Notes: generated by a model from the sequence alone, not told the origin. Counted from the stretch's first letter, positions 5,180-56,226 are shown. The stretch: 64,000 nt of DNA from Spirochaetota bacterium (GCA_029560805.1 JAKQKE010000250.1:529-64528); one strand, 5' to 3'. Made by a program: numbers and translations.

Positions 5180-6169
5180 TTGTGGTCGAAACGGTTTCAT
5201 GAGACAATCGGGCCGATGGTCTCGTTCCCTATCGATACCGAGGGCGGCCCCCAGGTCGTCCTGGAGCTCATCTATCGCCTCAAGGTCAAGGACGTGATGA
5301 TGCGCGACGTCATCACCGCCTCCGCCTCGTCGAGCCTGCGCGACATCCAGCTAGCCATGCGGGACCGCGGCATCACGGGGGTGCCCATCGTCGACGGCGA
5401 CAGGCTGCTCGGCATCGTGTCCATCGGGGACGTCATCCAGGCCCTCGACGGCGGCTGGATACACGAGCTCGCGTCCGAGCGCATGAGCACCTCGCTCATC
5501 GTGCTCGAGGACGATATGCCGCTGTCGTTCGCCATTACCTACTTCAACCGCTACGGCTACCGGCGCTTTCCCGTACTCGATAAGAACGCCTCGCTCGTCG
5601 GCATCGTCACCGCGGCGGATGTGCTGCGCGCGCTGCTCATAGAGATGAATCGCGAGGTCGAGAAGCTCGAGGAGGGGCTGGCCGGCCGGGCGGCGGCGGC
5701 GAGGGACGCCGCCGCTACGGCGACGGCCCCCGGGGGCGAGGCCGGCCTGACGATGAGCTTCGTCTCGCGGCGCTTCGATTTCGAGAACGCCGGCAAGGCC
5801 TCCGCCGAGCTCAAGAAGGCGCTCAGGGGGCTCGGCGTCGATGCCGCGTCGATACGACGGGCCGCCATCGTCAGCTACGAGCTGGAGATGAACCAGGTCA
5901 TCCATTCCGACGGCGGCGTCATGGAATTCTGCGCGGCGCAGGACTCGGTCAGGATAGTGGCACGGGATGAGGGACCGGGGATAGCGGACGTCGAGGCCGC
6001 CCTGACCGAGGGCTACTCCACGGCCAACGAGTGGATACGTTCGCTCGGCTTCGGCGCGGGCCTGGGCCTGCCGAACGCCAAGCGATCATCGGACGAATTC
6101 GAGCTTTCATCGAGGGTTGGCGCGGGGACGACCGTGCTCGCCGTCGTCAAGTATCAGGAGCGATCATGA
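5180..6169 (+). CDS. CBS-pair protein fused to an RsbW/SpoIIAB-like HATPase_c (anti-sigma-type Ser/Thr kinase) domain
   Basis: ORF 5180-6169; the start is uncertain (TTG 5180 or ATG 5216). It has two CBS repeats (VKDVMMRDVIT...GVPIVDGDRLLGIVSIGDV and RFPVLDKNASLVGIVTAADV). It also has a C-terminal ATPase block, RIVARDEGPGIADVE...GFGAGLGLPN...GAGTTV. Confidence 0.75.
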   Translation: MWSKRFHETIGPMVSFPIDTEGGPQVVLELIYRLKVKDVMMRDVITASASSSLRDIQLAMRDRGITGVPIVDGDRLLGIVSIGDVIQALDGGWIHELASERMSTSLIVLEDDMPLSFAITYFNRYGYRRFPVLDKNASLVGIVTAADVLRALLIEMNREVEKLEEGLAGRAAAARDAAATATAPGGEAGLTMSFVSRRFDFENAGKASAELKKALRGLGVDAASIRRAAIVSYELEMNQVIHSDGGVMEFCAAQDSVRIVARDEGPGIADVEAALTEGYSTANEWIRSLGFGAGLGLPNAKRSSDEFELSSRVGAGTTVLAVVKYQERS

Positions 6170-6498
6170 AGGTAAGCGATCTATCGACGCGCCTCGGTTT
6201 CGAGGCCATCTACGCGCCGGCCGGGGATGCCGACGTCAATGACGGCTACGCGTCCGACCTCTTGTCGGACGTCATGGCCAAGGCCGGGGACGGCTCGGTG
6301 CTCATCACCATACAGGCGCATAAGAATACCGTCGCGGTCGCCTCGTTGATCGGCATCCCGGCCGTCATCATCTGCAACGACCGTCCGGTGCCGAGCGACA
6401 TGATCGAGGCCGCCGAGGCCGAGGGCGTCGCCCTGCTCAGGACGCCCAAGACGCAGTTCGAGGTCGCCGGGACGCTCTATCCGGAGCTGCGGGGCTAG
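6166..6498 (+). CDS. DRTGG-domain protein
   Basis: Internal ATG 6166 of ORF 6031-6498 overlaps the upstream stop (ATGA). The sequence MKVSDL...YASDLLSDVMAKAGDGSVLITIQAHKNTVAVASLIGIPAVIICNDRPV matches my memory of DRTGG proteins (110 aa). Confidence 0.7.
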   Translation: MKVSDLSTRLGFEAIYAPAGDADVNDGYASDLLSDVMAKAGDGSVLITIQAHKNTVAVASLIGIPAVIICNDRPVPSDMIEAAEAEGVALLRTPKTQFEVAGTLYPELRG

Positions 6499-6518: not shown

Positions 6519-7253
6519 ATGTTCGTCGCCTGCGACTTCCATAACCACTCGTGCCTATCGCCGTGCGGTAGCCTGGAGCAGTCGCCGGCGCTACTGGCCA
6601 GGCTGGCCCGCGAGCGCGGTCTGGGCCTCGTCGCACTGACCGACCATAACAGCGCCTTGAACGCTCCGGCCTTCGCCGAGTGCGCCGCCAGGGAAGGCGT
6701 CGCCGCGCTCTACGGCATGGAGGCCACGAGCGCCGAGGAGGTGCATGTGCTCTGCCTGTTCGCCGAGGTGGGAGCCGCCCTCGATTTCGGGCGCTTCATC
6801 GAGGCGCGCTTGCCGCGTTTGCCCTATGATCCGGGTAAGCTAGGCGACCAGGTGGTGGTCGATGCGGATGAGAACGTACTCGACCTGCCCGAGTTGTACT
6901 TCGGCGCGGCCCTCGAGCTCGATTATGGCGAGCTGTGCGAGTCGGCCGCCGAGCGAGGCGCCCTCGTCATCCCCGCGCATATCGACCGCCCTATGTTCGG
7001 CGCCATATCGCAGCTCGGCTTCCTGCCCGACGGCCCGTACGCGGCGGTCGAGGCGGTCAGGCCACTGCCCGACGGGGCGGCCAGAGGCTACACGGTCATA
7101 ACCGGCTCGGACGCCCATTATCCCGAGCACGTGGCGCGGCGCCCCTTCGGGCTCGAGCTGGCCGACGGCTGGGCCTCCGGCGGCAAGGTCGACCTCGAGG
7201 CCGTCCGCGTCGCGCTGGCCGAGGGGCGGGTGCGCCTGCCGTTCGCCACATGA
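6519..7253 (+). CDS. PHP-family metal-dependent phosphoesterase
   Basis: ORF 6519-7253. N-terminal CDFHNHSCLSPCG and LTDHNS, plus IPAHIDRP and TGSDAHYPEH, are PHP-domain His/Asp motifs. Confidence 0.75.
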   Translation: MFVACDFHNHSCLSPCGSLEQSPALLARLARERGLGLVALTDHNSALNAPAFAECAAREGVAALYGMEATSAEEVHVLCLFAEVGAALDFGRFIEARLPRLPYDPGKLGDQVVVDADENVLDLPELYFGAALELDYGELCESAAERGALVIPAHIDRPMFGAISQLGFLPDGPYAAVEAVRPLPDGAARGYTVITGSDAHYPEHVARRPFGLELADGWASGGKVDLEAVRVALAEGRVRLPFAT

Positions 7254-10200
7254 GGCCGACGGCGGTGATGGTGCGCGCACGGGGCGGCGCGGTCGCGGTG
7301 ATCGCTGTCGCGCTCCTCTCGCTCGCGCCTATCGTCGGCCGTGCTGCCGCGCTCGGCGCCGTCGACCTCGACGACGCTACGGTCCTGGCCGCTCCCCCGC
7401 CGCGCGTCGCGGGCAGCGAGGCCGACTATACCCGCGTCCTGGTTGACGACGAGGCCTCGCTGTCGGATCGCCTGCTGGTGCACGTCGAGGGGCCGAGGGG
7501 CCTGCCCCTGACCGCGTTCACGGCCGAACCTGATCGGACGCTGTTCTCGCGGCTGCCCGAGAGCGGTAGGCGAGGCGTCTGGAACGCCCTACGCGAGGAG
7601 CCGCTCGCCTCGTCGACTCTGTGGCTATGCTTCAGGCTCGATAATCGCTCGCCGTGCGCGGCGTGGGCCCTCGTCGTCGAAGGCGCCGGCTTCAAGCCTC
7701 TGGCGATGGTCATCGTCGGGGGCGACGGCGGTATCCAGCATTACGGCGGCGAGTCCCTCGACGCCCTGCGCATGGGGACGAGTCTGGCCGACCTGTCGGC
7801 GTACGCGCTAAACGTACCGCCGGAATCGGAGCGGACCGTCTACCTGCGCCTGTCCGAGGGCTCGCTCTTCGGCCCCGGCTTCGGCGTATGGTCGCACGGG
7901 CTCTTCCTGGAGCGGTCCGAGGCCAGGCTCGGCCTGATGAGCGGCATAGCCGGCTTCGCCGTAGCCGCCTGCGTGTTCTACCTGCTCTTGTCGTCGCGCG
8001 GCTGGCCCGTTCCATATTCCGGTGGCGTCCGTCGCGCCGACCAGGCGCTCTCCTACGCCATGCCGACCGCCGCCTGCGGCTCGCTGCTGCTCAGCCTGAC
8101 CGGCGGCGGGGTTCGGCATGCCCTGGCCCTGATACTCGGCGCGGCGGCCGCGGCGATGGAGTGCGTCCTGGCGGCGAGAAGGATTTCCACTTCGCCTCTG
8201 GACGACGGGCTCGGCGCTCGTCGAGTCGCGGCGGCCATAGCGACCAGGGCGCTTGCCGCCCTAGCCTTCGCGGCCGTCATAGCCTTCGGATCGCAACGAC
8301 TGGCCTCGCTGGCCCTTCCGACTTGGTTGGCGCTTGCCGTCAGCCTGGCGGCCGGCGAGAGGCTGTCGGCCATCGCCACGCGGTCCCGCGCCTCGCATGC
8401 CGAGTCGAAGCGGCTCCTGGCGAGGCTGGAATCGGAGACGAGGGGCGGCGTCGACTTCATGACGGCGACGGCGGCCGCGCTACGTGGACCCCTCCACGGT
8501 ATGATGGGCATGCTCGAGGATCTTGAAGCCCTGGTCCAGGACGCTCCGTTACCGTCCCGGGCCGCATCGGACCTAGCCATCGCTCGAGCCGAGGCGGCTC
8601 GCCTTGATATACTCGTATCGAATATCCTCAGCTACTCGGGTCTGGGCCCGAACAGGCTGGCGGACGAGAACCTCGACTTGGCTTCCGTGGCTCGGTCCGC
8701 GGCGAGTCTCCTTCGCGTTTCCATCGCCGGCAAAGGCGTCCGAGTCGCCGTCGACGCGCCCGTCGTGGAGATACGCGGAGACATAGGCGTGGCCCACCGC
8801 CTGCTCTATACGGCGATGAGTCACGCCTCGAGGATAACCGGCGCCTCGCTGGTCAGGGTCTCGGCTTCTTCCGACGAGAGTCGGGTACGGGTCTACGTGG
8901 AGGACGACGGCGGAGCGCTCGACTCGCCATCGGGGACCGTCGTCGATAAGGGCCAAGAGCGCATCGAGCTCGATATCGACGCGGTCGTGTTGGGCCGGCT
9001 CGCGGGCCTGCTCGGCGGCACCTACCGCTTCGAGCGGCAATCCGGCATGAACGTACGCGTGTTCGACCTGCCCCGCCTCGCTCCGCCCGGCCCCGCGGAC
9101 TCGAGGCCGCGCGCCATGTCGGAGTTCCCATCCTCGGACGACGACGGGTCGGGCGGGCCGGCCCGTCCGGCGGGGCGGGTGCTCGTCGCGGGGAACGAAC
9201 CGGTCGCTCTCCTGTCGATCAAGCGTCGGCTCGAGGCCTCGGGCTGGTCGGTGCACGCTACCGTGTCATCCGCCGACGCGCTCGATAGGGCGCTCGGAAG
9301 GCCTCCGGCTCGGGCCGCCGCCGCCCAGCCCTACGACATCGTCATCATAGATTCGGCCATGCCGGGCATGAGCGGCTTCGAATTCTGCGAGTCGGTGCGC
9401 CGCAGCAAGTCGCCCGAGGCGCTCCCCATCGTCGTCCTACTCGAGCCGGGTCGGGTCGACGAGGTGGAGCGGGCCTTCCGCGCCGGCGCGAACGACTATA
9501 TCGTTCGCCCGGCCTCGGGCCTCGAACTGGCCGCCAGGGTCAAGACCCTTGTCGACCTGTCGTCGAGCGTCAAGCGCGAGCTGCGGCAGGCCACCCGCCT
9601 GGCCGAATTCGACAAGTACCGAACCCTGGCTATGCTGTCGGCCGGCGTGGCGCACGAGATCAATACGCCGAATAACGCGGTCCTGCGCACCGTACCCATG
9701 CTCAAGGAGATATGGAGCGGCATCGAGCCGGCCGTCGAGCGTCTGAGCCTCGAGGAGGGCGGCTTTAGCCTGGGCGGCTTCGACTACGACGACCTCCGGC
9801 GCGATGTGCCCGACATGCTCAACGACCTGTATATGGGCGCGCAGGATATTAAAAAGATAGTCGAGGGCCTCAAGGATTACGCCAGGGCCCCGTCAGAGAG
9901 CGCCAGCCTGGCGGTCGTCGACGCCAACGAGGCCATTCGCTACGCCGCGCGCCTGCTCAAGCATACGATAGCCGTATCCACCGATCGCTTCTCGATGACG
10001 CTGTCCGAGAACCTGCCCAAGGTCAAGGCGGACAGGCTCAAGCTGACCCAAGTGCTCGTCAACGTGCTCGAGAACGCCCTCCAGGCCATCTCGAGCAGGT
10101 CGGACGGCGTCTCGGTGGTCAGCGAACCGATCGACGACCTCGAGCTCGGCCGCTCCGTAGCCATCCGCATCGCCGACGAGGGCGCCGGCATGGACCCGGA

Positions 10201-10387
10201 TGTCCTGGCGTCGGTATGCTCCCCGTTCTTCACCACGAAGCGCGATCGTGGCGGCTCGGGGCTCGGTATGTCCGTCGCCCTCGGCCTGGTCCAAGACATG
10301 CGCGGCACCATCGATATACAATCGGAGCGCGGGGCCGGTACCGCCGTGACGATACGCATCCCGGTATGGCTCGGCGCGGAGGGCTGA
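7250..10387 (+). CDS. multidomain membrane sensor: 7TMR-DISM-like periplasmic and 7TM region, degenerate kinase module, degenerate receiver, functional HisKA/HATPase module
   Basis: Track ORF 6935-10387. I start it at ATG 7250 (ATGA overlap with the PHP stop) or at 7268. It has a signal/TM segment, a roughly 200-aa extracytoplasmic part and about 7 hydrophobic helices. The first dimerisation box, FMTATAAALRGPL, lacks the His. The REC domain has VLVAGNEP...IIDSAMPG...IVRP. The second module has SAGVAHEINTPNN, VLENALQAI, DEGAGMD and GGSGLGMS. Confidence 0.8.
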   Translation: MRPTAVMVRARGGAVAVIAVALLSLAPIVGRAAALGAVDLDDATVLAAPPPRVAGSEADYTRVLVDDEASLSDRLLVHVEGPRGLPLTAFTAEPDRTLFSRLPESGRRGVWNALREEPLASSTLWLCFRLDNRSPCAAWALVVEGAGFKPLAMVIVGGDGGIQHYGGESLDALRMGTSLADLSAYALNVPPESERTVYLRLSEGSLFGPGFGVWSHGLFLERSEARLGLMSGIAGFAVAACVFYLLLSSRGWPVPYSGGVRRADQALSYAMPTAACGSLLLSLTGGGVRHALALILGAAAAAMECVLAARRISTSPLDDGLGARRVAAAIATRALAALAFAAVIAFGSQRLASLALPTWLALAVSLAAGERLSAIATRSRASHAESKRLLARLESETRGGVDFMTATAAALRGPLHGMMGMLEDLEALVQDAPLPSRAASDLAIARAEAARLDILVSNILSYSGLGPNRLADENLDLASVARSAASLLRVSIAGKGVRVAVDAPVVEIRGDIGVAHRLLYTAMSHASRITGASLVRVSASSDESRVRVYVEDDGGALDSPSGTVVDKGQERIELDIDAVVLGRLAGLLGGTYRFERQSGMNVRVFDLPRLAPPGPADSRPRAMSEFPSSDDDGSGGPARPAGRVLVAGNEPVALLSIKRRLEASGWSVHATVSSADALDRALGRPPARAAAAQPYDIVIIDSAMPGMSGFEFCESVRRSKSPEALPIVVLLEPGRVDEVERAFRAGANDYIVRPASGLELAARVKTLVDLSSSVKRELRQATRLAEFDKYRTLAMLSAGVAHEINTPNNAVLRTVPMLKEIWSGIEPAVERLSLEEGGFSLGGFDYDDLRRDVPDMLNDLYMGAQDIKKIVEGLKDYARAPSESASLAVVDANEAIRYAARLLKHTIAVSTDRFSMTLSENLPKVKADRLKLTQVLVNVLENALQAISSRSDGVSVVSEPIDDLELGRSVAIRIADEGAGMDPDVLASVCSPFFTTKRDRGGSGLGMSVALGLVQDMRGTIDIQSERGAGTAVTIRIPVWLGAEG

Positions 10388-10392
10388 TCATC

Positions 10393-11799
10393 ATGGACGA
10401 GAAACGCGGTTCGGTCATCGTCGTCGACGACGACGTCGGAGTGCTGAGGCGGCTGGACCGCCTGCTGCGCTTCGAAGGCTACGGAGAGGTGATCATGTGC
10501 GAGCGGGCCGACGACGCGTGGCCGGCGCTGCGCGCGTCCCGGCCGATAGCCATGATCCTCGACCTGATGATGCCCGGAGTCGACGGCTACGCGACGCTCG
10601 AGCGGATGAGGGAGGAGCGGCCCGACGTACCGGTCATCGTCGCCACGGCGATCGACGACCTGGATACCGTCGTCCGATGCATGAAGGCGGGCGCCTTCGA
10701 CTACGTACCGAAGACGGCCGAGACCTCGAGGCTCCTGGCGAGCCTCGAGCATGCCGCGATGATAGGCAGGCTGCTCGAGGACAATAAAGCCCTGCGCGAC
10801 AGCCTGCTCCACGACGACAAGAGCTCCATCGGCTTCTTCGAGGGCATCGTCACGCGCGACAAGAAGATGAGCGACATCTTCAGGTACCTGGCGGCTATCG
10901 CCAAGAGCGACAAGCCCATCCTGATCTGTGGAGAGTCGGGCACCGGCAAGGAGTTGTTCGCCTCGGCGGCCCACGCCGCCTCGGGACGATCGGGAGAGCT
11001 CGTAACGGTCAATATCGCCGGCCTCGACGACGCGATGTTCAGCGATACGCTGTTTGGGCATAAGCGGGGGGCCTTTACCGGAGCCGATACCGACCGGCTC
11101 GGCCTGATCGAGCAGGCCAAGGGCGGCACGCTGTTCCTCGACGAGATAGGCGACCTTCCACAGCAGAGCCAGGTCAAGCTACTCAGGTTGATCGAGCAGC
11201 GCCGATACTACCCTCTCGGCGCTGACATGACACGCTCGTCCGATGCTCTGATCGTCGCGGCGACGAACCGCGATCTCGAGCGGGCCTGCGCCGCGGGCGA
11301 GTTTAGGCCGGATCTATACTTCAGGCTGGAGACGCACCTGATACGGTTGCCGCCGCTCCGCGAGCGCCGCGACGACCTGCCGCTACTGGTCGAAGTCTTC
11401 GTCGCCAGGGCCGCCGAGAAATTCGGGAAGCCTGCGCCGGGCGTGCCGATCGAACTCTACGACTTGCTCGGCGCCTACGATTTCCCCGGTAACGTGCGCG
11501 AGCTCGAGTCGATGGTGCACGACGCTGTAGGACGCGCCGACGGCAGGATGCTGTCGCTCGATTCGTTCCGTCGCCGGGTGTTCAAGCCAGGCGCGCGCCC
11601 GGTCGCGGCGTCTCCCGTGGCCAAGAACGTATTCTCTACGCTGGCTACCCTCCCGACCCTGCGAGAGGCGTCCGACGCGCTGATAGCGGAAGCCCTGGCG
11701 CGCTCGGGCGGCAATCAGGGCGTAGCCGCCGGTCTCTTGGGCCTGTCCAGGACGGCCTTGAACCGGCGCATCAAGCTTCGTATCGAGGAAGACGCTTAA
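10393..11799 (+). CDS. sigma-54-dependent response regulator (REC - AAA+ EBP - Fis-type HTH; NtrC family)
   Basis: Internal ATG 10393 of ORF 10216-11799 (MDEKRGSVIVVDDD), 5 nt after the kinase stop. It has D in ILDLMMPGVDG, Walker A GESGTGKE, the GAFTGA loop, Walker B LFLDEIGD and a C-terminal HTH LLGLSRTALNRRIK. Confidence 0.9.
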   Translation: MDEKRGSVIVVDDDVGVLRRLDRLLRFEGYGEVIMCERADDAWPALRASRPIAMILDLMMPGVDGYATLERMREERPDVPVIVATAIDDLDTVVRCMKAGAFDYVPKTAETSRLLASLEHAAMIGRLLEDNKALRDSLLHDDKSSIGFFEGIVTRDKKMSDIFRYLAAIAKSDKPILICGESGTGKELFASAAHAASGRSGELVTVNIAGLDDAMFSDTLFGHKRGAFTGADTDRLGLIEQAKGGTLFLDEIGDLPQQSQVKLLRLIEQRRYYPLGADMTRSSDALIVAATNRDLERACAAGEFRPDLYFRLETHLIRLPPLRERRDDLPLLVEVFVARAAEKFGKPAPGVPIELYDLLGAYDFPGNVRELESMVHDAVGRADGRMLSLDSFRRRVFKPGARPVAASPVAKNVFSTLATLPTLREASDALIAEALARSGGNQGVAAGLLGLSRTALNRRIKLRIEEDA

Positions 11800-11983
11800 G
11801 GCGGATTCCGGGTTGCCCGCTACGTCTCAGCCAGTACCTATCGCCGCCGATGATGGGGATGGCCATGCAAGAAGGGTGTGCAAAATTCGACACGAGGCGC
11901 TTTTGGTACATGCTGCTTATATCATTTTCTGGAAAGAAGATAGCTATTGATATAGCTTCTTGGCAGACTTGTAGTGGCAAGTA

Positions 11984-12019
11984 GTCGACAACATTGTCGT
12001 TTCGGCGATGGTTGTCGAG
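11984..12019. promoter_or_regulatory. candidate enhancer (UAS): three CGACAA/TTGTCG half-sites
   Basis: Palindrome CGACAAcaTTGTCG at 11986-11999, plus TTGTCG at 12012-12017. The outer pair reads TCGACAAC...GTTGTCGA. It is centred about 75-90 bp upstream of the -24 element and is followed by an almost pure A/T tract (12026-12055). Confidence 0.35.
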
Positions 12020-12074
12020 CCGCATAAATCATTAATATATAAATATATACATTGCGTTCACTCCCTTGTGATCT

Positions 12075-12090
12075 TGGCACGGTAATTGCT
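12075..12090 (+). promoter_or_regulatory. sigma-54 (-24/-12) promoter
   Basis: cTTGGCACGGTAATTGCTt equals TGGCACG-N4-TTGCT, a complete match to the YTGGCACGrNNNTTGCW consensus with correct GG-N10-GC spacing. It is intergenic and lies immediately downstream of an EBP gene. Confidence 0.6.
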
Positions 12091-12099
12091 TTATACCAT

Positions 12100-12238
12100 G
12101 TGGTTGGTTGAGCCCCAAGTCAGGTAAAAAATGGTATGTAAACAAGTGATGTAAACAAGTCGCGGTAAACAATGGGGGTAATGTAAACATCGTGAATCCG
12201 AGATAGCGGAACGTCAGGGCCGACGTTCCGCTTTTTTT
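12100..12238 (+). ncRNA. candidate sigma-54-dependent small RNA (about 140 nt) with four GTAAACA repeats
   Basis: The 5' end is inferred about 12 nt downstream of the -12 GC. GTAAACA occurs at 12138, 12151, 12165 and 12183 (three as ATGTAAACA). No ORF exceeds 7 codons. It ends in the intrinsic terminator at 12206-12238. It could alternatively be an attenuated leader of the gene at 12327. Confidence 0.45.
12206..12238 (+). terminator. Rho-independent terminator
   Basis: Perfect 10-bp stem GCGGAACGTC / GACGTTCCGC, 6-nt loop AGGGCC, then TTTTTTT. Confidence 0.75.
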
Positions 12239-12326
12239 GCGTCCGGCCCGGCGCAACCTCGCCGGGTGGCCGCGGTCGAACATGGCAAGGAAGCGGCGCT
12301 CGACGCCGCCCTCGAAAGGTCGTTCG

Positions 12327-12998
12327 ATGTCAGATCGCGTTTACTCCGCTCCGGAAGTCTCCCCCGCCCGCTATCCTCTCGGCGAGGAAATTGCCAACGC
12401 CATAACGCACGGCGTCTGGGCCCTTCTGTCTATCGCCGGCCTTGTCGTGCTGATCGTATCGGCCGCGACGCGTGGGGACGCATGGTACGTCGTTTCGTTC
12501 GCAATATTCGGTGCTAGCGCCGTCGTGCTATTCACCATGTCGACGATCTACCACGCGGTCGCAGCCCCGAAGGCCAAGAAGGTCCTCCGGGTCATCGACC
12601 ACTCGTCGGTCTATCTCCTGATAGCCGGTACCTATACGCCGTTCGCCCTGACCGCGCTCAGGCCGACGATAGGGTGGGTCGTGTTCGGCGTTATCTGGGG
12701 CGCTGCCGCGCTCGGCATCGCCCTCAAGCCCTTCCTGACGGGCAAGATGAAGTTCGTCTCCACTGTCGCCTACGTGCTGATGGGATGGATCATCGTCTTC
12801 GCGTGGAAGCCGCTTGCTGCCGCCGTCGACGTCGCGGCCCTACGGTACCTCGTCGCCGGAGGCCTGGCCTATACGATCGGCGCCGCCTTCTACCTGCTCA
12901 AAAGACGGTGCTGGACCCACCCGGTATGGCACCTGTTCGTCGGTGCCGGCGCGACGCTCCACTTCTTCGCGGCGCTGGCGCTGCTACCTCAGGGCTGA
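12327..12998 (+). CDS. hemolysin III / PAQR-family membrane protein
   Basis: ORF 12237-12998. Start moved to ATG 12327 (MSDRVYS), because the upstream part overlaps the terminator. Motifs EEIANAITHG, STIYH, DHSSVYLLIAGTYTPF and a C-terminal HLFV with 7 TM helices are present. Confidence 0.85.
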   Translation: MSDRVYSAPEVSPARYPLGEEIANAITHGVWALLSIAGLVVLIVSAATRGDAWYVVSFAIFGASAVVLFTMSTIYHAVAAPKAKKVLRVIDHSSVYLLIAGTYTPFALTALRPTIGWVVFGVIWGAAALGIALKPFLTGKMKFVSTVAYVLMGWIIVFAWKPLAAAVDVAALRYLVAGGLAYTIGAAFYLLKRRCWTHPVWHLFVGAGATLHFFAALALLPQG

Positions 12999-13456: not shown

Positions 13457-14241
13457 GGCGTCGGTCCTGAGATCAGCATGGCCAGCTGCAGCGCCAAGCC
13501 GACGCCGATCGAGATGCCGGCCGCCGAGATGAACGCGTCGGCCGCCCGGGCTATGCCAGCCACCAGGTCGCCGGCTATCAAGTCCCGTATGGCATTGACT
13601 ATGAGCACGCCGGGCACGAGTAGCATGATGGAGCCGATGATCATCGCGTCGGTATTGCCCGCGACGCGGAGGGCCTCGGCGCCGATGGCGACGGCGGCCG
13701 CGAAGGCTCCGCCGACAATATTGGAGAAGAAAACCGACAGCTTCATGCCGCCGAGCGCCGACGTTATCCTGCCTATGACGAGGCCGATCCCGGCCGAGAC
13801 CAGCGCGTCGTTCCAGGCGCCGCCGAATAGCAGGCAGAAGAAGCCGGTAACGAAGGCGGCGCCGACGGCGGGTATCGGCCGCGGGTAGGCGCCGAGCGCG
13901 TCTATGGCGCATAGCTCCCGCTCTATCCCGTCCCGATCGAGTCTGCCCGATACGGCGTCCCGCGCGAGCGCGTTGACGCGGGTGATCTTGTCCAGGTTCA
14001 GCTGGTGCTTGCGTATGCGCCTGACGACCGCCCTGCCGCGCCCGTACCGGTCGTCGCAGGACGCCATGAAGCCGGTCGGCGTGGCGAAGGCCTCCGGCTC
14101 GAGCGCTCCGAGGGCCGAGGCCACGGCGGACATGACTTCCTCGGCCCGGTAGGTCTCGCCGCCGGACTCGAGCACGATGCGGGCGGCTTCGGCAGACAGC
14201 CTGAGCGCGTCGTCGGTATTGTCCTCGTCGTCCGTCGTCAT
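13453..14241 (-). CDS. threonine/serine exporter family, large subunit (ThrE / DUF1212-like)
   Basis: ORF 13453-14241. SGGETYRAEEV near the N-terminus followed by 5 TM helices. Paired with the small subunit downstream. Confidence 0.75.
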   Translation of the reverse strand: MTTDDEDNTDDALRLSAEAARIVLESGGETYRAEEVMSAVASALGALEPEAFATPTGFMASCDDRYGRGRAVVRRIRKHQLNLDKITRVNALARDAVSGRLDRDGIERELCAIDALGAYPRPIPAVGAAFVTGFFCLLFGGAWNDALVSAGIGLVIGRITSALGGMKLSVFFSNIVGGAFAAAVAIGAEALRVAGNTDAMIIGSIMLLVPGVLIVNAIRDLIAGDLVAGIARAADAFISAAGISIGVGLALQLAMLISGPTP

Positions 14242-14900
14242 TCCAGCCCCACGTACATCGCCATGGTCACGTGCAGCATGCCCTCGTCGAAGATGCGCTC
14301 GTTGCCGGTCCAGGCGTTGTAGACGGGCATGAGCCCGCGGACGCCGAAGGCGAAGGTAAAATTCTGCTGTAGGTAGACGTCGAAACGCAACGAGGCGGAG
14401 GGGTAGAACCAGCGGCCGTCGGACCAGAAGTACGAGGCTATAGCCGCGAGGTTGCCGGCCATTGCTTCCTCGACGCCCGCCGTCGTGTCGTTCTTGAAGG
14501 AGGCGCGCAGCACAAAGGCTGGCCCGAGGCCGAAGGCGCCGCCTAGGCGTTCGCCGAAGCGGAAGCTGGCGGTCAGCGGCAGATCGACGATGAAGCCGAG
14601 CACGAAGGCGTTATTGCCCTCGCCGGTCTCCGACTCGGTTGGTACGGCGCGGCCCTCGTACCACTTGTAATTGGTCCAGTAGAGATCGAGCGCCGGCTGG
14701 AGGCTCAGAAAGAAGCCCTTGGAGAACGATATGGCCAGCGCACCGCCCAAGGTGTTCGTGACCGGGACGAGCGGCAGCGGGTCGTACTGGTTGTTGACGA
14801 TGATGACGCCGAAGCGGCCCGACGCCGCCTCCAGGTCCCATGCGCTCGCGGAGGCGATCGCGGCCGCTGCAATGGCCGCCGCCAAGACGATTCTCTTCAT
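14238..14900 (-). CDS. secreted hypothetical protein, beta-barrel-like
   Basis: ORF 14238-14900. Signal peptide MKRIVLAAAIAAAAIASASA, alternating aromatic/aliphatic strands, ATGA overlap with the next gene. No family recognised. Confidence 0.5.
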   Translation of the reverse strand: MKRIVLAAAIAAAAIASASAWDLEAASGRFGVIIVNNQYDPLPLVPVTNTLGGALAISFSKGFFLSLQPALDLYWTNYKWYEGRAVPTESETGEGNNAFVLGFIVDLPLTASFRFGERLGGAFGLGPAFVLRASFKNDTTAGVEEAMAGNLAAIASYFWSDGRWFYPSASLRFDVYLQQNFTFAFGVRGLMPVYNAWTGNERIFDEGMLHVTMAMYVGLE

Positions 14901-20468: not shown

Positions 20469-20543
20469 GGGCGATTAACTCAGCGGGAGAGTGCTACCTT
20501 CACACGGTAGAAGTCACTGGTTCAATCCCAGTATCGCCCACCA
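20469..20543 (+). tRNA. tRNA-Val (anticodon CAC), CCA encoded
   Basis: Hand-folded cloverleaf: acceptor GGGCGAT/ATCGCCC, D-stem ACTC/GAGT, anticodon stem CTACC/GGTAG with loop TTCACAC, T-stem ACTGG/CCAGT with loop TTCAATC, discriminator A plus CCA. Confidence 0.9.
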
Positions 20544-35303: not shown

Positions 35304-35464
35304 CCGCGATGCCTCGTACGGAGCGGCGGGGGAGGTCGGGCGTCGGCGTTACGCTGGGAGGGACGGGCCCCGGAGAACGAGGGCGGACGGCTCCCGATGC
35401 GGAGACCTCAAGGAGGCTACCCGCCGGCGTATCGCTAGCGGCTCACCTCGTACCGCGCGAAAGG

Positions 35465-35650
35465 ATCGCCTTGGCAGGTCTTCTGGCTTCCGGGTCGTCC
35501 GGCGGTCGCGCCTTCCCGGCCCCGGAAGGGCCAGTGGCGATGAGCGATCGTCGTATCCGGGTACAGCGGCGGGTCCGCTCCCGATTTGAACGGGATTCCC
35601 TCTTGGCGGCGGGCAGCTTGGGCCGCTCGCCGAACCTTGGCGTGTCCTCG
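35465..35650 (-). ncRNA. cobalamin (B12) riboswitch
   Basis: The minus strand reads ...AAGAGGGAAUCCCGUUCAAAUCGGGAGCGGACCCGCCGCUGUACCCGG...GCCACUGGCCC...GGGAAGGCG...GAAGCCAGAAGACCUGCC. These are the conserved core blocks and the B12 box (35473-35487) of the cobalamin riboswitch. It lies about 160 nt upstream of the TonB-family CDS. Confidence 0.8.
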
Positions 35651-35772
35651 TTATACGGACTAACGCCTCGGAGGTCAAGCGACGCCCGGCCCCGTTTCTA
35701 GTCGCCGGAACGGGGGCGGTACTTTCTGGCTATGCTCTCTCCCGTGCTATACTCGCCCGCGAGGAGAACCCC

Positions 35773-46292: not shown

Positions 46293-46898
46293 TCAGTAGT
46301 TCCTGACTATGCCGCGGAGCTTGCCGAGTATGCGGACGTCCTGGGTGAAGATGGGCGCGTAGCTGTCGTTCTCCGGCTCCAGCCTGACCCTCGTCTTTTC
46401 CTTGTAGAAGCGTTTGAGCGTAACCGAGTCCTCGATGGCCGCTACGACAATCTCGCCGTCGCTGGCCACCTGTCGCTGCTCGATCACGGCCAGGTCGCCG
46501 TCGAGGATGCCGGCCTTGATCATGCTGTCGCCCTTGACCTTAAGGGCGAAGCAACGCGACGAGCCGACCATCGAGACCGGTACGTGGATGCTCGAGTCGA
46601 AATTCTCCTCGGCGAAGATCGGCTTGCCCGCGGCCACGGAGCCGAGCAACGGTACCTCGACGGCGGCGTTGTGCTCCTGCCTGGTCGACTTACCGATGAT
46701 CTCGATCTTCCTGGACCGACCGCCGCCGGCTCTGATGCGGCCCTTGCGCTCGAGGGCCTTCAGGTGGTCGTACGCGCCGCGGACTGACATAGAAAAATGG
46801 GCGGCTATCTCGCGTATGGTCGGGGGGTAGGGGTTTTCCCAGATGAAGGACTCGATATAATCGAGCACTTCCTTTTGGCGATCCGTCAAGTCATTCAT
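46293..46898 (-). CDS. lexA: LexA repressor
   Basis: ORF 46293-46898. N-terminal winged HTH LTDRQKEVLDYI...PPTIREIA. The S24 peptidase domain has VKGDSMIKAGILDGD and TLKRF. Confidence 0.9.
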   Translation of the reverse strand: MNDLTDRQKEVLDYIESFIWENPYPPTIREIAAHFSMSVRGAYDHLKALERKGRIRAGGGRSRKIEIIGKSTRQEHNAAVEVPLLGSVAAGKPIFAEENFDSSIHVPVSMVGSSRCFALKVKGDSMIKAGILDGDLAVIEQRQVASDGEIVVAAIEDSVTLKRFYKEKTRVRLEPENDSYAPIFTQDVRILGKLRGIVRNY

Positions 46899-48259
46899 TC
46901 GCCGGCCTCGATACCGAATTTCTTGATCTTGGCGTAGAGGTTCTTCGGGTAAATCCCGATCGCTTCGGCTGTCTTCACGATATTATAGCCATGTTTTCTC
47001 AAGTTGTGGTGTAAATAACCTCGTTCGAAGGCTTCTTTTGCCTCGGAATACCGAATATTCAATAGCTCGTCGAGCCGGTCCGGGGCGGCTTCCGGGCTGG
47101 AGCCGTCGCTCTTGAGCATGAAATGCCGCACGGTCTCGCCCGAGATGACGTCCTCGTCGCTCATCACCGCTATACGCTCGATAAAATTCTTGAGCTCGCG
47201 CACGTTCCCCGGCCAGTCGTGGGCCTTGAGCGTCGCCATGGCCTCGTCGGACATGCGCCTGACCCTTCCACCCGAAAAGCGAGCGAGGAAGAAGGCCGTA
47301 AGCTCGGGTATATCGTCGGCCCGCTCCCTCAGGGCGGGGATACGTAGCGGGATGACGTTGAGTCTGAAGAACAGGTCCTCCCTGAAGCGGCCGGCCGCTA
47401 TCTCCTGCCTGAGATCCTTGTTCGTGGCGGCGATCACCCGTACGTCCACCTCGATGGTGCTCTCGCCTCCGAGGCGCTCGAAGCGCATCTCCTGGACGGC
47501 CCGGAGCATTTTGGCCTGGGCCGAGAGAGACATGTCGGCTATCTCGTCGAGGAATAGCGTGCCGGTATGAGCCGTCTCGAATTTGCCCTTGCGCCTGGCT
47601 ACCGCGTCGGTGAAGGAACCCTTCTCGTGGCCGAACAGCTCGCTCTCGATCAGGGTGTCGGGCATGGCGGCGCAGTTCACCGCTACGAAGGGCCCCGAGG
47701 CCCGCTCCGACAACTCGTGGATGCGCCTGGCCACGAGTTCCTTGCCGGTGCCGTTCTCGCCGGTGATCAGCACTCGGGCGTCCGAGCGGGCGCTCTGGTA
47801 GATCAGGTCGCGTACGTAGGCCATCGGGTCCGAGGCGCCTATGATGTCGTCCGACTCGACCGCCGAGCGCTTCAGCCTGGCGTTCTCCACGCGCAGATCC
47901 GACAGGGCTCTGGCGTTCCTGACCGCGGTGATCAGCCGCTCGATCGATAAGGGCTTCTCGATGAAGTCGAAGGCGCCGAGCTTGACGGCGCTGACGGCCA
48001 TATCGATGGACGCATGGCCCGACACGACGATGGTCTCCACCGCCGGATGGTCGGCCTTGATCGCCTTGAGTACGTCGATGCCGCCCATCCTCGGTAGCCA
48101 TACGTCCAGGACGACGACGTCGACGCTGTCTCGCTTGAGCGCCTCGAGCCCGGACGGGCCGTCCTCGGCAGTCAGGGCTTCGTATCCCTCGTCCTCGAGG
48201 ATGTCCTTTACGGTGGCCCGAATGCCGGGCTCGTCGTCGATTACGAGGATGGCGCCCAT
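46895..48259 (-). CDS. sigma-54-dependent response regulator (NtrX/AtoC-like EBP)
   Basis: ORF 46895-48259. REC (ILVIDDEPGIR...VLDVWLPRMGG), Walker A GENGTGKE, a GSFTDA loop variant of GAFTGA, LFLDEIAD and a C-terminal HTH are present. ORF 46983-48575 is off-frame noise. Confidence 0.9.
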   Translation of the reverse strand: MGAILVIDDEPGIRATVKDILEDEGYEALTAEDGPSGLEALKRDSVDVVVLDVWLPRMGGIDVLKAIKADHPAVETIVVSGHASIDMAVSAVKLGAFDFIEKPLSIERLITAVRNARALSDLRVENARLKRSAVESDDIIGASDPMAYVRDLIYQSARSDARVLITGENGTGKELVARRIHELSERASGPFVAVNCAAMPDTLIESELFGHEKGSFTDAVARRKGKFETAHTGTLFLDEIADMSLSAQAKMLRAVQEMRFERLGGESTIEVDVRVIAATNKDLRQEIAAGRFREDLFFRLNVIPLRIPALRERADDIPELTAFFLARFSGGRVRRMSDEAMATLKAHDWPGNVRELKNFIERIAVMSDEDVISGETVRHFMLKSDGSSPEAAPDRLDELLNIRYSEAKEAFERGYLHHNLRKHGYNIVKTAEAIGIYPKNLYAKIKKFGIEAGE

Positions 48260-48282
48260 GGATACTCTTCCTTACTGCTCGA

Positions 48283-50058
48283 TTATTGACTCTCCGCCGG
48301 CAGGTCGATGTAGAAAACCGTACCCGCGCCTTCCGCGGAGTCGAAACGTATCTTGCCGCCATGGGCGGAAACGATGTGCTCGACGATGGCGAGGCCCAAG
48401 CCGGTCCCGCCAGGCTTCGTGGTAAAGTACGGTGAAAAAACCTTGTCTCGGACGTCGGCCGGGATGCCGTACCCGTCGTCCCTGACCTGGAGTCTACAGT
48501 ATCGGGATTCCGCCGTTTTGACAAGATCGGCCCGTATCCACACGTGGCCCGAGCCATCGGTCGCCGCGGCGGCATTGGACAGCAGGTTGCCGAGCGCTTG
48601 CTTCAAGTAACCCCGATCCGCCTTCAGCGTAATGGTCGGATCGATGGCGCCGCAGTCTATGGTCAGCTCGGGCCACGAGGCCGAGTACAGGTGCACCGCC
48701 TCGTCGACCATGGGCTTGAGCTCCATCCAGGCCTTCTGCGGCTCGGGCAACCTCGCAAAATCGCGGAATTCGGTCAGCAACGCTTCCATATTGGCCGTTT
48801 CTTGAATGATGGCGACCATGGACTTCTCGAGCACCGCGCCGACCGACGACGGGTCCGCCTTCCAGCGCTTGAGTACCCGCTCGGCCGACAGACGGATCGG
48901 CGTCAACGGGTTGCGTAGCTCGTGTGCCAGTTTCCTCGCGATATCCCGCCAGGCCCCTATCTTCTCATTGCGTAGCTCGTCGCCGCGGCTTCGTTCGATG
49001 CGCTCGAGCAGCGCGTTGAGGCTCTCGACCAGGTCGCCGGCTTCGTCGCCGGGCTTGGCCAGGTACGGGGCCCGCCTGGCCCCCGAGCCTATCCTGGTTA
49101 TGGCGTCGGAGAGCGCCGCGACCGGCCTGAGCAGCCGGTCGGATACGCTGAGCGCGAACAGCGTGGCTATGGCCAGGAGCGGTGCGACCAGGCTGAACGA
49201 GAAGAAGGCTATGTACAGGCTCGAGGAGCCGCGTATGCGGCCGGAGACCTCGAGCGTGGCCAGGGTCGACGATAGGGCCGACGCGGCAAGCTCGGCCTCG
49301 TCGTCGAACCTAAGCGAGACTATGGCCGAGACCCGCGATTTCCTGTCAGGTGAGCTTCCGGCGTCCGCCGCGAAATAGCGCGCGTAGCTTGCCCCGCCCG
49401 CCGAGAGCCTGGGTAGGAGCGCGCTTTTGTCCATCGGCCTGAAGCCGGGCGAGCCGCGCGCGGTCGGGTCGCCGGCGAAGGAGGCGGAAGCCCCGCCCGA
49501 GAACAGCTCGACGGCGCAGATGGACGGCTCACGGGCCGACAGCCGCGACAGCACGCGCTCGGCGTCCGGGCCTCGAGCGTCGACTATCGGCGCCACGTCG
49601 TTCTCGGCGGCGTACTTGAGGGCGGCTTCCTTGTCCGCGAGGTAGGTCAGAGCCACGTCGAGCCCGTCGCCGAGCGCCGAGCGGACGGTCGCCGAGGCCG
49701 GCGCGTCCAAGGCCTCGACGGCCAGGATGCCGATGAATAGCGACGGAGGCACGGCGGCCATCGCGGCGACGGCCATGAACGAGGCCAGCACCCTGCCCTT
49801 GAGCCTGTAGCCCCAGGCCTTTCTCCTGTATTCCCGGGCGAAGCGGGCGGCCGCCGCGACAAGCACGAGGCCTATCACCGTCGGGGTCAGAGTCAACAGG
49901 GCGGCCGCCGCGCCGGACTGGACGGCAGGGAAGCTCGCGTCGCCGAGCGTGGCGGTCCGTAGGTACGCGAGCGAGCCGGACAGCGCTATGGCGTAGATCA
50001 GGCCGATGACGACCAGGTCGATCGCCCGGCGCGACGTGAAGCCCTTGCCCGTCATCAC
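48283..50058 (-). CDS. membrane sensor histidine kinase (NtrY-like: TM - HAMP - HisKA - HATPase)
   Basis: ORF 48283-50058. The H-box is IARKLAHELRNPLTPI. LLSNAAAAT, DDGYGIP and GGTGLGLAIV are present. Confidence 0.8.
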   Translation of the reverse strand: MMTGKGFTSRRAIDLVVIGLIYAIALSGSLAYLRTATLGDASFPAVQSGAAAALLTLTPTVIGLVLVAAAARFAREYRRKAWGYRLKGRVLASFMAVAAMAAVPPSLFIGILAVEALDAPASATVRSALGDGLDVALTYLADKEAALKYAAENDVAPIVDARGPDAERVLSRLSAREPSICAVELFSGGASASFAGDPTARGSPGFRPMDKSALLPRLSAGGASYARYFAADAGSSPDRKSRVSAIVSLRFDDEAELAASALSSTLATLEVSGRIRGSSSLYIAFFSFSLVAPLLAIATLFALSVSDRLLRPVAALSDAITRIGSGARRAPYLAKPGDEAGDLVESLNALLERIERSRGDELRNEKIGAWRDIARKLAHELRNPLTPIRLSAERVLKRWKADPSSVGAVLEKSMVAIIQETANMEALLTEFRDFARLPEPQKAWMELKPMVDEAVHLYSASWPELTIDCGAIDPTITLKADRGYLKQALGNLLSNAAAATDGSGHVWIRADLVKTAESRYCRLQVRDDGYGIPADVRDKVFSPYFTTKPGGTGLGLAIVEHIVSAHGGKIRFDSAEGAGTVFYIDLPAESQ

Positions 50059-50321
50059 ACCTCTTCGAAGCGGTTCTTGAACAGCCTGTCGATGGCCTCG
50101 GCGGCCTCCGCCTCGTCCTCGCCGTCGGCGATGATGAGGATCTCGGTATCGAAGCCTGCCCCGAGCGTGATGATGCCCATGATGCTCTTGGCGTTTATCC
50201 TGTCGTCGCCCTTCTGAAGCGATATCTTCGACTTGAATTTACTGGCCGTCTGTACGATCAACGCCGCGGGTCGGGCGTGGATCCCCGCCCTGTTCTTGAT
50301 GACGGTCATTCTCTCGATCAT
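50055..50321 (-). CDS. ptsH: HPr-family phosphocarrier protein
   Basis: C-terminal 88 aa of ORF 50055-50399, starting at ATG 50321. His-15 context NRAGIHARPA and Ser-46 context AKSIMGI are both present. Confidence 0.85.
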   Translation of the reverse strand: MIERMTVIKNRAGIHARPAALIVQTASKFKSKISLQKGDDRINAKSIMGIITLGAGFDTEILIIADGEDEAEAAEAIDRLFKNRFEEV

Positions 50322-50346
50322 GGAGGCCTCTCCGATCTTACATAGA

Positions 50347-51348
50347 CTAGATTGAATCGTCCCGCCCAAAGTATACGGCTCGGGCATTCTCGCTCTCAAG
50401 CCAGCGGAGTATATTCTGGTTGAACTCCTTGGCCGAATGGTAGCCCATCTTCTTGAGCCGCTCGTTCATGGCGGCCGTCTCGACGATGATGGGGATGTTC
50501 CTGCCCGGCTTGACCGGGATATCGAGCTGCGGCACGTGCACGCCCAGGATGTCCATCGTCTTTTCCTCGGTCCCGATGCGGTCGTAGACCTTGGATGCGT
50601 CCCATTCCTCCAGCGAGCAGACGAGCTGGATCTGCTTCTTGTCCCTGATGGCGCCGACGCCGAAGAGGTGGGTTACGTTGATGATGCCGAGGCCGCGGAT
50701 CTCCATATGGTGGCCGATGACCTTGTTGGCCCCCGAACCCATCAGGATGTTGCCGGATATGCAGCGTATCTCGACGACGTCGTCGGCGACGAGGCGATGG
50801 CCGCGCTCTATCAGCTCGAGCGCGGTCTCGCTCTTGCCGACGCCCGACTCGCCGGTCAGCAGGATGCCGATGCCGTACACCTCGACGAGCACGCCGTGCA
50901 CGCTCGTCCTCGGCGCGAATACGTTGGTCAGCACGCGCATGAGCCTGGACGACAGCTCCGTCGAGGGCAGGTCCGATAGCAGGATGGGGCAGTTGGCGGC
51001 CTCGGCCGCCTGGGCGAACATCGGGGCCGGCGGTTCGCCGTTGGCGAAGATGAAGCACGGTATCGGGAACGAGAAGATCCTCGAGACGCCTTCCTCGCGA
51101 CCCTCGGCGGCGAGCAGGTGCAGGTACGCCGCCTCGCCGTGGCCTATCAGCTGGACGCGCTGGTAGGCGAAGCTTTCGAAGAAGCCGGACAGGGCTAGCC
51201 CCGGCCGGTTGATGTCCGGGGCGCTGATGACCCTGCCCAGGCCCTTGCGGCCCCCGATGCAGCGCAACTCGAGCGCGTCGTGCTCCTTGAGGTCGAGGTC
51301 GAGCAAGTCGAGTACCGTAAAGCGTTTCTCATCCATCGCCCGGAGCAT
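50347..51348 (-). CDS. hprK: HPr kinase/phosphorylase
   Basis: C-terminal 333 aa of ORF 50347-51543, starting at ATG 51348 (or 51336). The P-loop GESGVGKSE and signature LVADDVVE...MEIRGLGIINV are present. Confidence 0.85.
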   Translation of the reverse strand: MLRAMDEKRFTVLDLLDLDLKEHDALELRCIGGRKGLGRVISAPDINRPGLALSGFFESFAYQRVQLIGHGEAAYLHLLAAEGREEGVSRIFSFPIPCFIFANGEPPAPMFAQAAEAANCPILLSDLPSTELSSRLMRVLTNVFAPRTSVHGVLVEVYGIGILLTGESGVGKSETALELIERGHRLVADDVVEIRCISGNILMGSGANKVIGHHMEIRGLGIINVTHLFGVGAIRDKKQIQLVCSLEEWDASKVYDRIGTEEKTMDILGVHVPQLDIPVKPGRNIPIIVETAAMNERLKKMGYHSAKEFNQNILRWLESENARAVYFGRDDSI

Positions 51349-51484
51349 ACTCCGTTTCCCGGGCTTGCGCAACGATATTAACTGAGGCGGCTCGACGCGA
51401 TAGCCTGCCCCGGAGCCGTCGCCCGAGACGGCGAAGGCCCCGCGGCGCGAGCGGCGGGGCCTTCGATCGAGCGGCTCGTGGAGC

Positions 51485-51775
51485 TTATTTCTTATCCTGG
51501 ACCTTCGACTTTTCCTTGTTGATTTTCTGTTCGAGGGTATCAATCAGCTTGTCCATCCCCGCGGCCAGGTCGAAGTCCGTCTCCTGCACGTGGGCGCTCG
51601 AGCCCCAGCGGAAGTTGACGGTGCACTCGCACTTGAACTGCTTCTCCTTGGTGAACGAGAACAAGAGGTCGACGATCAGATCCTTCGCGTACGCGATGCG
51701 CTCCAGCTTCTTGTCCAGGTAAGCCCTGCTCGGTTCGCCGAGGTCGAAGTGCACGGAACGGACGTCAATAGTCAT
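51485..51775 (-). CDS. hpf: ribosome hibernation factor, short form (sigma-54 modulation protein family)
   Basis: ORF 51485-51775 (96 aa). It sits immediately downstream of rpoN. Its length and pattern are typical of HPF/YfiA. Confidence 0.8.
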   Translation of the reverse strand: MTIDVRSVHFDLGEPSRAYLDKKLERIAYAKDLIVDLLFSFTKEKQFKCECTVNFRWGSSAHVQETDFDLAAGMDKLIDTLEQKINKEKSKVQDKK

Positions 51776-51813
51776 GCAAGCCTCCTTGTGCCGGTGAGAC
51801 CGGCTGATTGCGC

Positions 51814-56098: not shown

Positions 56099-56226
56099 CC
56101 ACGGAGGCACGAAGGCACGGAGAAGAGAAAGGTAAGAGAAATGTGAAGAGAGCGAATAAGCATCTGTTTAGATGCTTTCTAAGCTTTCTTCCATTGTCTT
56201 ACCTCCGTGTCTCCGCGCCTCCGTGG
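56099..56226. repeat. 128-nt imperfect inverted repeat (long hairpin) in the dnaK-dnaJ spacer
   Basis: The outer arms are CCACGGAGGC...GGTAAGA / TCTTACC...GCCTCCGTGG. The apex is a perfect AAGCATCT-gttt-AGATGCTT (56158-56177). The left arm is purine-rich, the right arm is pyrimidine-rich, and the region is locally AT-rich. Confidence 0.7.

Follow-up and report, generated by a model that had tools for sequence, protein, structure and literature searches.

The question raised by this locus is what occupies the intergenic gap of about 470 bp behind an NtrC-type EBP gene, a gap that is conserved in many spirochaete MAGs and for which the RNA family described here provides an annotation rule. The gap was analysed within a window of 64,000 nucleotides (the whole stretch of DNA under analysis). 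It had been predicted to encode an EBP-controlled, sigma-54-dependent and repeat-bearing small RNA (sRNA) of about 140 nt, a prediction which now finds support in 38 further loci, in covariation and in the presence of rpoN in the window. That there is an sRNA gene as such at 12100-12238 appears, from these comparisons, highly probable.

The protein genes of the proposed system are the following:

6935-10387, + strand: hybrid sensor histidine kinase (Pfam HisKA, REC and HATPase_c, with a weak 7TMR-DISMED2 match)
10393-11799, + strand: NtrC-type EBP response regulator (REC, sigma-54 AAA+ domain with GAFTGA, Fis-type HTH, HTH_8)
51814-53187, - strand: rpoN, encoding sigma-54 (Pfam Sigma54_AID, Sigma54_CBD and Sigma54_DBD)

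The domains of the second gene bear out the EBP expected directly upstream of the gap. The limits given for the kinase are those of a mechanical ORF which overlaps a PHP gene, so that the true start is probably near 7250; the kinase orthologues carry 7TMR-DISMED2 and 7TMR-DISM_7TM domains. Upstream of the kinase lie three genes, for a CBS-pair and HATPase_c_2 (anti-sigma-kinase-like) protein (5180-6169, +), a 110-aa DRTGG/HPr-kinase-N-like protein (6166-6498, +) and a PHP phosphoesterase (6519-7253, +), which are conserved with the kinase in every orthologous locus and, together with the kinase and EBP genes, probably make up a single signalling operon. Close homologues of the EBP (54-100% identity) all belong to uncultured Spirochaetia MAGs, labelled HGW-Spirochaetae-3 and -7, Rectinemataceae or Spirochaetales.

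Orthologous loci, which are spirochaete metagenome or MAG sequences, were obtained by an exact-protein look-up and by a metagenome scan with an alignment of the C-terminal HTH of the EBP. When genome contigs were scanned with an alignment of the entire EBP, the generic Walker A peptide GESGTGKEL dominated the result; the unrelated EBP loci so obtained (L011-L090) were kept as a negative control. The complete unit was found after the orthologous kinase-EBP operon in 38 further distinct loci (39 RNAs with that of the window), and the anticipated conservation of promoter, repeat array and terminator downstream of orthologous EBP genes is thereby borne out. The elements of the gap follow one another in the order UAS1, second site, A/T-rich spacer, promoter, 3-12 repeat units and G+C-rich terminator. 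In the window as in the 38 loci the sRNA gene, with its -24/-12 promoter, comes directly after the EBP gene, which is the arrangement of a CbrB/CrcZ-like module. A matrix scan of both strands detected 38 arrays of at least three units in the 0.99 Mb of family loci and the window, each of them on the + strand and close behind the EBP gene, with a single one in the window, and none in the 1.32 Mb of unrelated EBP loci. Where the EBP is at least about 56% identical to that of the window and the locus is long enough, nearly all loci have the sRNA unit; the exceptions are L144, which has a degenerate copy of it, and L126 and L148 (56%), two G+C-rich loci in which a sigma-54 promoter drives a protein gene. 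The group with EBPs at 45-53% is also devoid of the array. At the level of sequence, the comparison establishes an independent transcription unit with a predicted sigma-54 promoter, tightly linked to one kinase/EBP operon.

What follows the unit bears on a second reading, already raised by the original prediction, according to which the RNA would be a leader acting in cis, driven by sigma-54, with a terminator that attenuates read-through into the hemolysin-III (HlyIII) gene at 12327 (+). This gene does lie on the same strand about 90 nt past the terminator in the window and its close relatives, and HlyIII (+) is the downstream gene in the window's clade; elsewhere, however, the position is taken by a convergent gene of unknown function or by a PilZ gene, with convergent unrelated genes and no HlyIII in L009, L010, L171, L172-L174 and most clade B loci. 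The constant linkage to a same-strand downstream gene that characterizes riboswitch or attenuator leaders is thus not found and, because the downstream gene differs between lineages, the sRNA unit appears to travel with the EBP gene rather than with the gene that follows, as expected of a free-standing sRNA and not of a hemolysin-III leader. The terminator is moreover strong and conserved, and the alignment fold of the window's clade contains no conserved alternative antiterminator pairing. The leader reading is therefore contradicted by synteny, and we regard it as very improbable.

Also at the downstream border, a signal-peptide protein of unknown function, with no Pfam match, is encoded both in the window (14238-14900, -) and in L009 (6874-7698, -); the two proteins are 52% identical and have DUF8086 and prolyl-tRNA synthetase genes as neighbours. 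Since in L009 this gene directly abuts the sRNA terminator, HlyIII and ThrE may have been inserted in the window's clade.

The elements located between the EBP gene and the RNA are:

11877-11892, no strand: UAS1, TGTGCAAAATTCGACA, the family-wide TGTG-N8-CACA palindrome (from conservation)
11975-12017, no strand: UAS2 region, with a conserved right half-site CGACA at 11986-11990
12026-12055, no strand: A/T-rich spacer from enhancer to promoter, a possible bend or IHF-type site
12075-12090, + strand: sigma-54 promoter, TGGCACG-gtaa-TTGCT, TGGCACGgtaaTTGCT (from consensus scan and conservation)

The perfect -24/-12 element reported beforehand is indeed present, TGGCACGGTAATTGCT at 12075-12090 being the sole exact match to TGGCACG-N4-TTGCW in the whole 64-kb window. 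The lone match with one mismatch, at 15973, is without the essential GG and is placed within a gene on the opposite strand, and shuffled sequences give 0.36 matches to the consensus at up to one mismatch. In 38/38 loci TGG and TGC are invariant and their spacing is fixed, the family form being TGGCAyG-N4-tTGCw, and transcription in the window is predicted to start at about 12100-12102.

UAS1 (TGTG-N8-CACA with up to one mismatch) was found in all 38 of these loci, directly 3' of the EBP stop codon and usually flanked by GGG. In the window GGG precedes it at 11874-11876, and its centre lies about 190 bp upstream of the TGGCA motif, that is at about -216 from the start. Across the 38 loci the centre ranges from -189 to -240 relative to the TGGCA motif, with distances that form classes of about 10 bp, as expected if the helical face matters. 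UAS2 lies 96-99 bp further downstream and in other loci again has the form TGTG-N8-CACA; a more distant clade keeps both halves of the palindrome, and the window's clade (clade A) retains the right half alone, as sGACA or GCACA. An enhancer had been assigned to three CGACAA/TTGTCG hexamers, which are present as the palindrome CGACAAcaTTGTCG at 11986-11999 and a further TTGTCG at 12012-12017. This assignment holds in part: the CGACA half-site (11986-11990) matches the family UAS2, but the best-conserved site, at 11877-11892, had been missed, and the arrangement that the hexamers have over 11986-12017 is shared by L091, the closest relative, alone. The family thus has conserved upstream activator sites at a distance suited to looping, as in CbrB/CrcZ-like modules, binding of the EBP to them being predicted, and across the family the putative enhancer sites co-evolve in position with the promoter. 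The A/T tract described at 12026-12055 is present too, with A/T-rich tracts at the equivalent position in orthologous loci, and the AT-rich island after the EBP gene is confirmed by a drop of the GC content to 37-47% over about 11825-12200, against 63-69% in the flanks.

A further 16-bp palindrome, GTAGAC-N4-GTCTAC, lies in the distant clade between UAS2 and the sigma-54 promoter (for example, L171:4596-4612). It was seen in L113, L118, L127, L136, L139, L157, L158 and L171, is absent from the window, and might bind a further dimeric regulator.

From this layout, the adjacent EBP presumably activates the promoter, and expression is predicted to depend on rpoN and on this EBP. The second kinase/EBP pair of the window (46895-50058) could in principle drive the sRNA promoter as well. 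It belongs to the surroundings of rpoN, which heads the cluster rpoN - hpf (S30AE) - hprK - HPr gene (50055-53187, -), where Pfam matches to S30AE and PTS-HPr support the hpf and HPr genes. A HAMP histidine kinase gene (48283-50058) lies directly downstream of this cluster on the same strand, followed by the gene for the second NtrC-type EBP (46895-48259) and by lexA (46293-46898), and one 64-kb window thus holds sigma-54 and two EBPs.

Within the transcribed region the following elements were recognized:

12100-12238, + strand: predicted sRNA of about 138 nt between the conserved promoter and terminator
12112-12116, + strand: 5' strand of helix P1, GCCCC (RNAalifold and pair counts)
12122-12192, + strand: five A-rich units, starting at 12122, 12136, 12149, 12163 and 12181 (matrix scan)
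12175-12179, + strand: 3' strand of helix P1, GGGGU (RNAalifold and pair counts)
12205-12238, + strand: intrinsic terminator, consisting of an 11-bp stem, a GGGCCG-type loop and a T run

The RNAs of the family are about 140-230 nt long. P1 is a 5-bp long-range helix, unbroken in 14/14 sequences of the window's clade, in which two pairs undergo compensatory changes (G-C/A-U/G-U in one, U-A/C-G in the other); in the window, units 1-4 are inside its loop and unit 5 is just 3' of it. The GC-rich stem and T run noticed earlier do constitute a terminator, with 11 pairs in the stem (12205-12232), 7 of which are G-C, and a T run ending at 12238. The stem has been conserved, and 4 of its 11 pairs show compensatory changes. 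For P1 and terminator together, 97.8% of the cells are paired over the 14 sequences and six pairs have double changes; the observed covariation was reached by none of 500 shuffles, and slid controls gave 39-50%. Fold and covariation establish a structured scaffold on which reiterated units, predicted to be single-stranded, are presented.

RNAs of the distant clade have an extra structured module after the repeats (for example, L171:4785-4865), with a hairpin CCGUUUC-UACCCGGG-GAAACGG that shows compensatory changes. The module was observed in L112-L114, L120, L122, L134, L139, L141, L151, L157, L158 and L171. Its loop sequence ACCCGG has a conserved complement, ACGGGU, upstream of the terminator, with which it might form a pseudoknot, and the module may correspond to the GUCCC/GGGAC helix of the window's clade.

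The units were originally described as four copies of GTAAACA. These copies are real (12138, 12151, 12165 and 12183), they are the only ones on either strand of the window and they fall within 52 nt, the count expected over the whole 64 kb being 0.97. The conserved unit is nevertheless a different one, A-K-G-U-A-A-n-A-A-n-G-U, of which the window has five, the family matrix adding AGGTAAAAAATG at 12122. The motif was built from 100 and then from 160 instances, with frequencies A (0.90), K, G (0.72), U (0.98), A (0.99), A (0.97), n, A (0.84), A (0.95), n, G, U; GTAAACA is one variant of it, and GTAAAAA and GTAAGAA (GUAAAAAA, GUAAGAAA) are commoner. Units are repeated with a modal spacing of 13-16 nt, for a period of about 14 nt, and number from 3 to 12 per RNA. 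The upper end is seen in L102 (2970-3300), where an RNA of about 300 nt contains about 12 units, with the hairpin module between them, which makes the copy number of the unit very plastic.

Positions 5, 6, 8 and 9 of the unit are A in 84-99% of cases and positions 7 and 10 vary, with a 3-nt periodicity; the two most variable positions of the core are spaced 3 nt from each other, which gives the core the form AAnAAn. Two consecutive A-R-N triplets occur in 92% of the 160 units, and the number of ARN-ARN units (147) is in weak excess over column shuffles (142.8 +/- 2.6). As this excess is small, and about 8% of the shuffles reach the observed value in a register-compensation test, the A-R-N reading is suggestive only. 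In 28/28 RNAs the unit cores are predicted to be more often unpaired (about 0.74-0.75) than the rest (0.40), a difference of limited weight because such a prediction is nearly automatic for A-rich stretches. The array corresponds in this respect to the several single-stranded A-rich motifs, of the AAnAAn(AA) type, that are found in CbrB/CrcZ-like modules, with extra flanks that differ from the CrcZ motif.

Beyond the array, ribosome-binding sites show no enrichment of single units in the limited sequence covered (8/69, against a background of 7.1%). The sole unit-like sequence at a ribosome-binding site of the window is a weak single unit, AUGUAAGAUCGG (7.1 bits; 50321-50343, -), in the hprK-HPr spacer just upstream of GGAGAGG and of the probable ATG of the HPr gene; it is probably due to chance. 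A three-hit cluster in the dnaK-dnaJ spacer (56173-56204, -) is weak and also looks like chance. Pairing of the unit with the 3' end of 16S rRNA and a reading of the units as AUG-UAA start-stop elements were both dropped, as neither is conserved across the unit variants.

The repeats might instead act at the DNA level, as iterated transcription factor sites located 3' of the promoter, or the region might encode a small protein. An earlier statement that no ORF exceeds seven codons is slightly off, since a 9-codon ATG...TAA frame starts at 12099 (+), at or before the predicted start; within the RNA no + strand frame is longer than a few codons. On the minus strand an 83-codon open frame (12032-12283) overlaps the sRNA unit, and a minus-strand open frame spans the region in many orthologues, too; moreover, AUGUAA is the spelling of 39/160 units. 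The minus-strand frame is, however, broken in L003, L093, L097, L010 and L122, and is considered an artefact of composition, since this strand is A-poor and open frames are expected on it by chance; the minus-strand similarity among orthologues splits across frames. Likewise, AGGUAA, which has no start codon, is found in 53/160 units, and the 13-16 nt spacing is not a multiple of 3. Conservation is strand-specific and comprised exactly between the conserved promoter and terminator, and the compensatory changes in P1 point to RNA. Neither a DNA-level nor a coding function is thus at all likely.

The explanation that best accounts for the whole is a free-standing sRNA, acting in trans and driven by the EBP and sigma-54, which serves as a decoy for an RNA-binding regulator; we consider the chances of this complete account to be about even. 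According to it, the hybrid kinase (6935-10387) would phosphorylate the NtrC-type activator (10393-11799), which would bind the TGTG-N8-CACA-type sites at 11877-11892 and around 11986 and contact sigma-54 RNA polymerase at 12075-12090 across the A/T-rich spacer. Transcription would stop at the terminator (12205-12238), and P1 (12112-12116 with 12175-12179) would close a loop displaying four single-stranded units, with the fifth 3' of the helix. The units would then be reiterated decoy sites titrating an RNA-binding regulator of AAnAAn-type, ribosome-binding-site-like sequences, so that signal-dependent induction of the RNA would free the mRNA targets of that regulator. The proposed circuit follows the logic of CbrA/CbrB-CrcZ-Hfq in Pseudomonas. 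The RNA would act in trans, and the role of protein sponge put forward by the original prediction would be that of the titrating units; for the decoy mechanism taken separately, which is argued by analogy, the odds seem evenly balanced.

The same sigma-54- and EBP-dependent RNA might rather act by base pairing, its units being redundant seeds against U-rich sites (complement ACUUUnUUAC) in several mRNAs, after the manner of multi-seed sRNAs or Qrr-type RNAs. EBP-adjacent sigma-54 sRNAs do include pairing RNAs such as Qrr beside LuxO, the units are predicted to be accessible, and the RNA has a U-tailed terminator at its 3' end. On the other hand, A-rich seeds pair weakly, titration RNAs typically carry, as this one does (3-12 copies, about every 14 nt), a variable number of fairly regularly spaced motifs, variation at every third position keeps no single fixed complementary sequence, and the very small part of the genome that is available yielded no candidate target. 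Because the copy number varies, the spacing is regular and the variation follows this pattern, we rate base pairing below the decoy mechanism, as an unlikely alternative.

The system that the decoy reading takes as its model is well described. CrcZ is a 407-nt RNA with six A-rich stretches which bind the distal face of Hfq; it titrates Hfq (with Crc) and relieves the repression of mRNAs with A-rich ribosome-binding sites, its promoter depends on CbrB and RpoN, and in all Pseudomonas genomes analysed crcZ follows cbrB (PMC4063720, PMC5113210). The RNA of the window resembles CrcZ (and CrcY/CrcX; Pseudomonas, Azotobacter; CbrA/CbrB and RpoN) in that its gene is immediately downstream of a two-component NtrC-type EBP gene, has a sigma-54 promoter with upstream activator sites, and specifies several single-stranded A-rich motifs of the AAnAAn type and an intrinsic terminator. 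It differs in having no homology of sequence or structure to CrcZ, three chance-level matches, none of them CrcZ, being all that Rfam cmscan returned for 11800-12400 at E<=10; in coming from another phylum (Spirochaetia); and in its length (about 140-230 nt in the family). Its units are arranged in tight tandem, with a period of about 14 nt and extra flanks A-K-G-U ... G-U, its kinase is a 7TMR-DISM hybrid and not an SLC5 kinase of the CbrA type, and Hfq, the partner of CrcZ, may be absent from the spirochaete lineage. By this comparison the spirochaete RNA is most likely a non-homologous analogue of CbrB/CrcZ and, as an independent second example of that design, suggests that the architecture arose convergently.

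Other regulatory RNAs are more distant. CsrB and RsmZ also carry reiterated short motifs in variable number and sequester a translational regulator. Their motifs are GGA in hairpin loops, which bind CsrA/RsmA, and their transcription depends on sigma-70 and GacA/UvrY; in the RNA of the window GGA is absent outside the terminator stem, and the family motif does not contain it. Qrr (LuxO) and GlmY (GlrK/GlrR) are sigma-54-dependent sRNAs encoded beside the activating EBP or two-component genes, but neither has an A-rich tandem array, Qrr RNAs base-pairing through a single conserved seed and GlmY being a structured decoy for RapZ with no reiterated motifs.

As to the partner, tblastn searches of the 64-kb window with Hfq, CsrA and Crc gave no match, and Pfam detected no RNA-binding regulator among the small genes of the window. 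The signal-peptide protein at 14238-14900 was considered and is not an obvious candidate, with no Pfam match. A published survey found Hfq in Leptospiraceae and in no other spirochaetes, and the protein called 'Hfq' in Borrelia was shown not to be Hfq (PMC10802407); Hfq may therefore be absent from the source lineage. The conserved 5' positions of the unit (A, G, U) fall outside the A-R-N rule of Hfq. The non-homology to CrcZ, the extra conserved flanks and the survey of spirochaete Hfq together suggest that the partner may be a protein other than Hfq, and literature searches brought up, for most spirochaetes, no global regulator binding RNA other than CsrA.

A bolder proposal is that the RNA is the first representative of a family, so far undescribed, of sponge RNAs that depend on sigma-54 and are widespread among free-living Spirochaetia, where they sequester a global translational regulator which binds RNA and is itself yet to be described, in a lineage possibly devoid of Hfq. 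We hold this tentatively, as somewhat less probable than the decoy mechanism as such. If it were true, the unit would be a direct bait for the regulator protein and spirochaetes would possess a Cbr/Crc-like post-transcriptional circuit.

Whatever the mechanism, the 39 loci delineate a complete and compact module composed of sensor kinase, EBP, enhancer, sigma-54 promoter and sRNA, and offer a precise RNA motif that can be used as bait for a partner protein. The sRNA family is new and previously undescribed, while of a known kind, namely an EBP-adjacent sigma-54-dependent RNA with reiterated A-rich motifs: literature searches on sigma-54-dependent sRNAs in spirochaetes returned nothing relevant, no paper describing the family and no matching Rfam family were found, and 12 family loci searched against Rfam gave no match. 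Run over the whole window at gathering thresholds, Rfam cmscan reported no sRNA family and two other RNAs only, a cobalamin riboswitch at 35456-35654 (-; RF00174, 106 bits) and a tRNA gene at 20469-20540 (+; RF00005, 64 bits).
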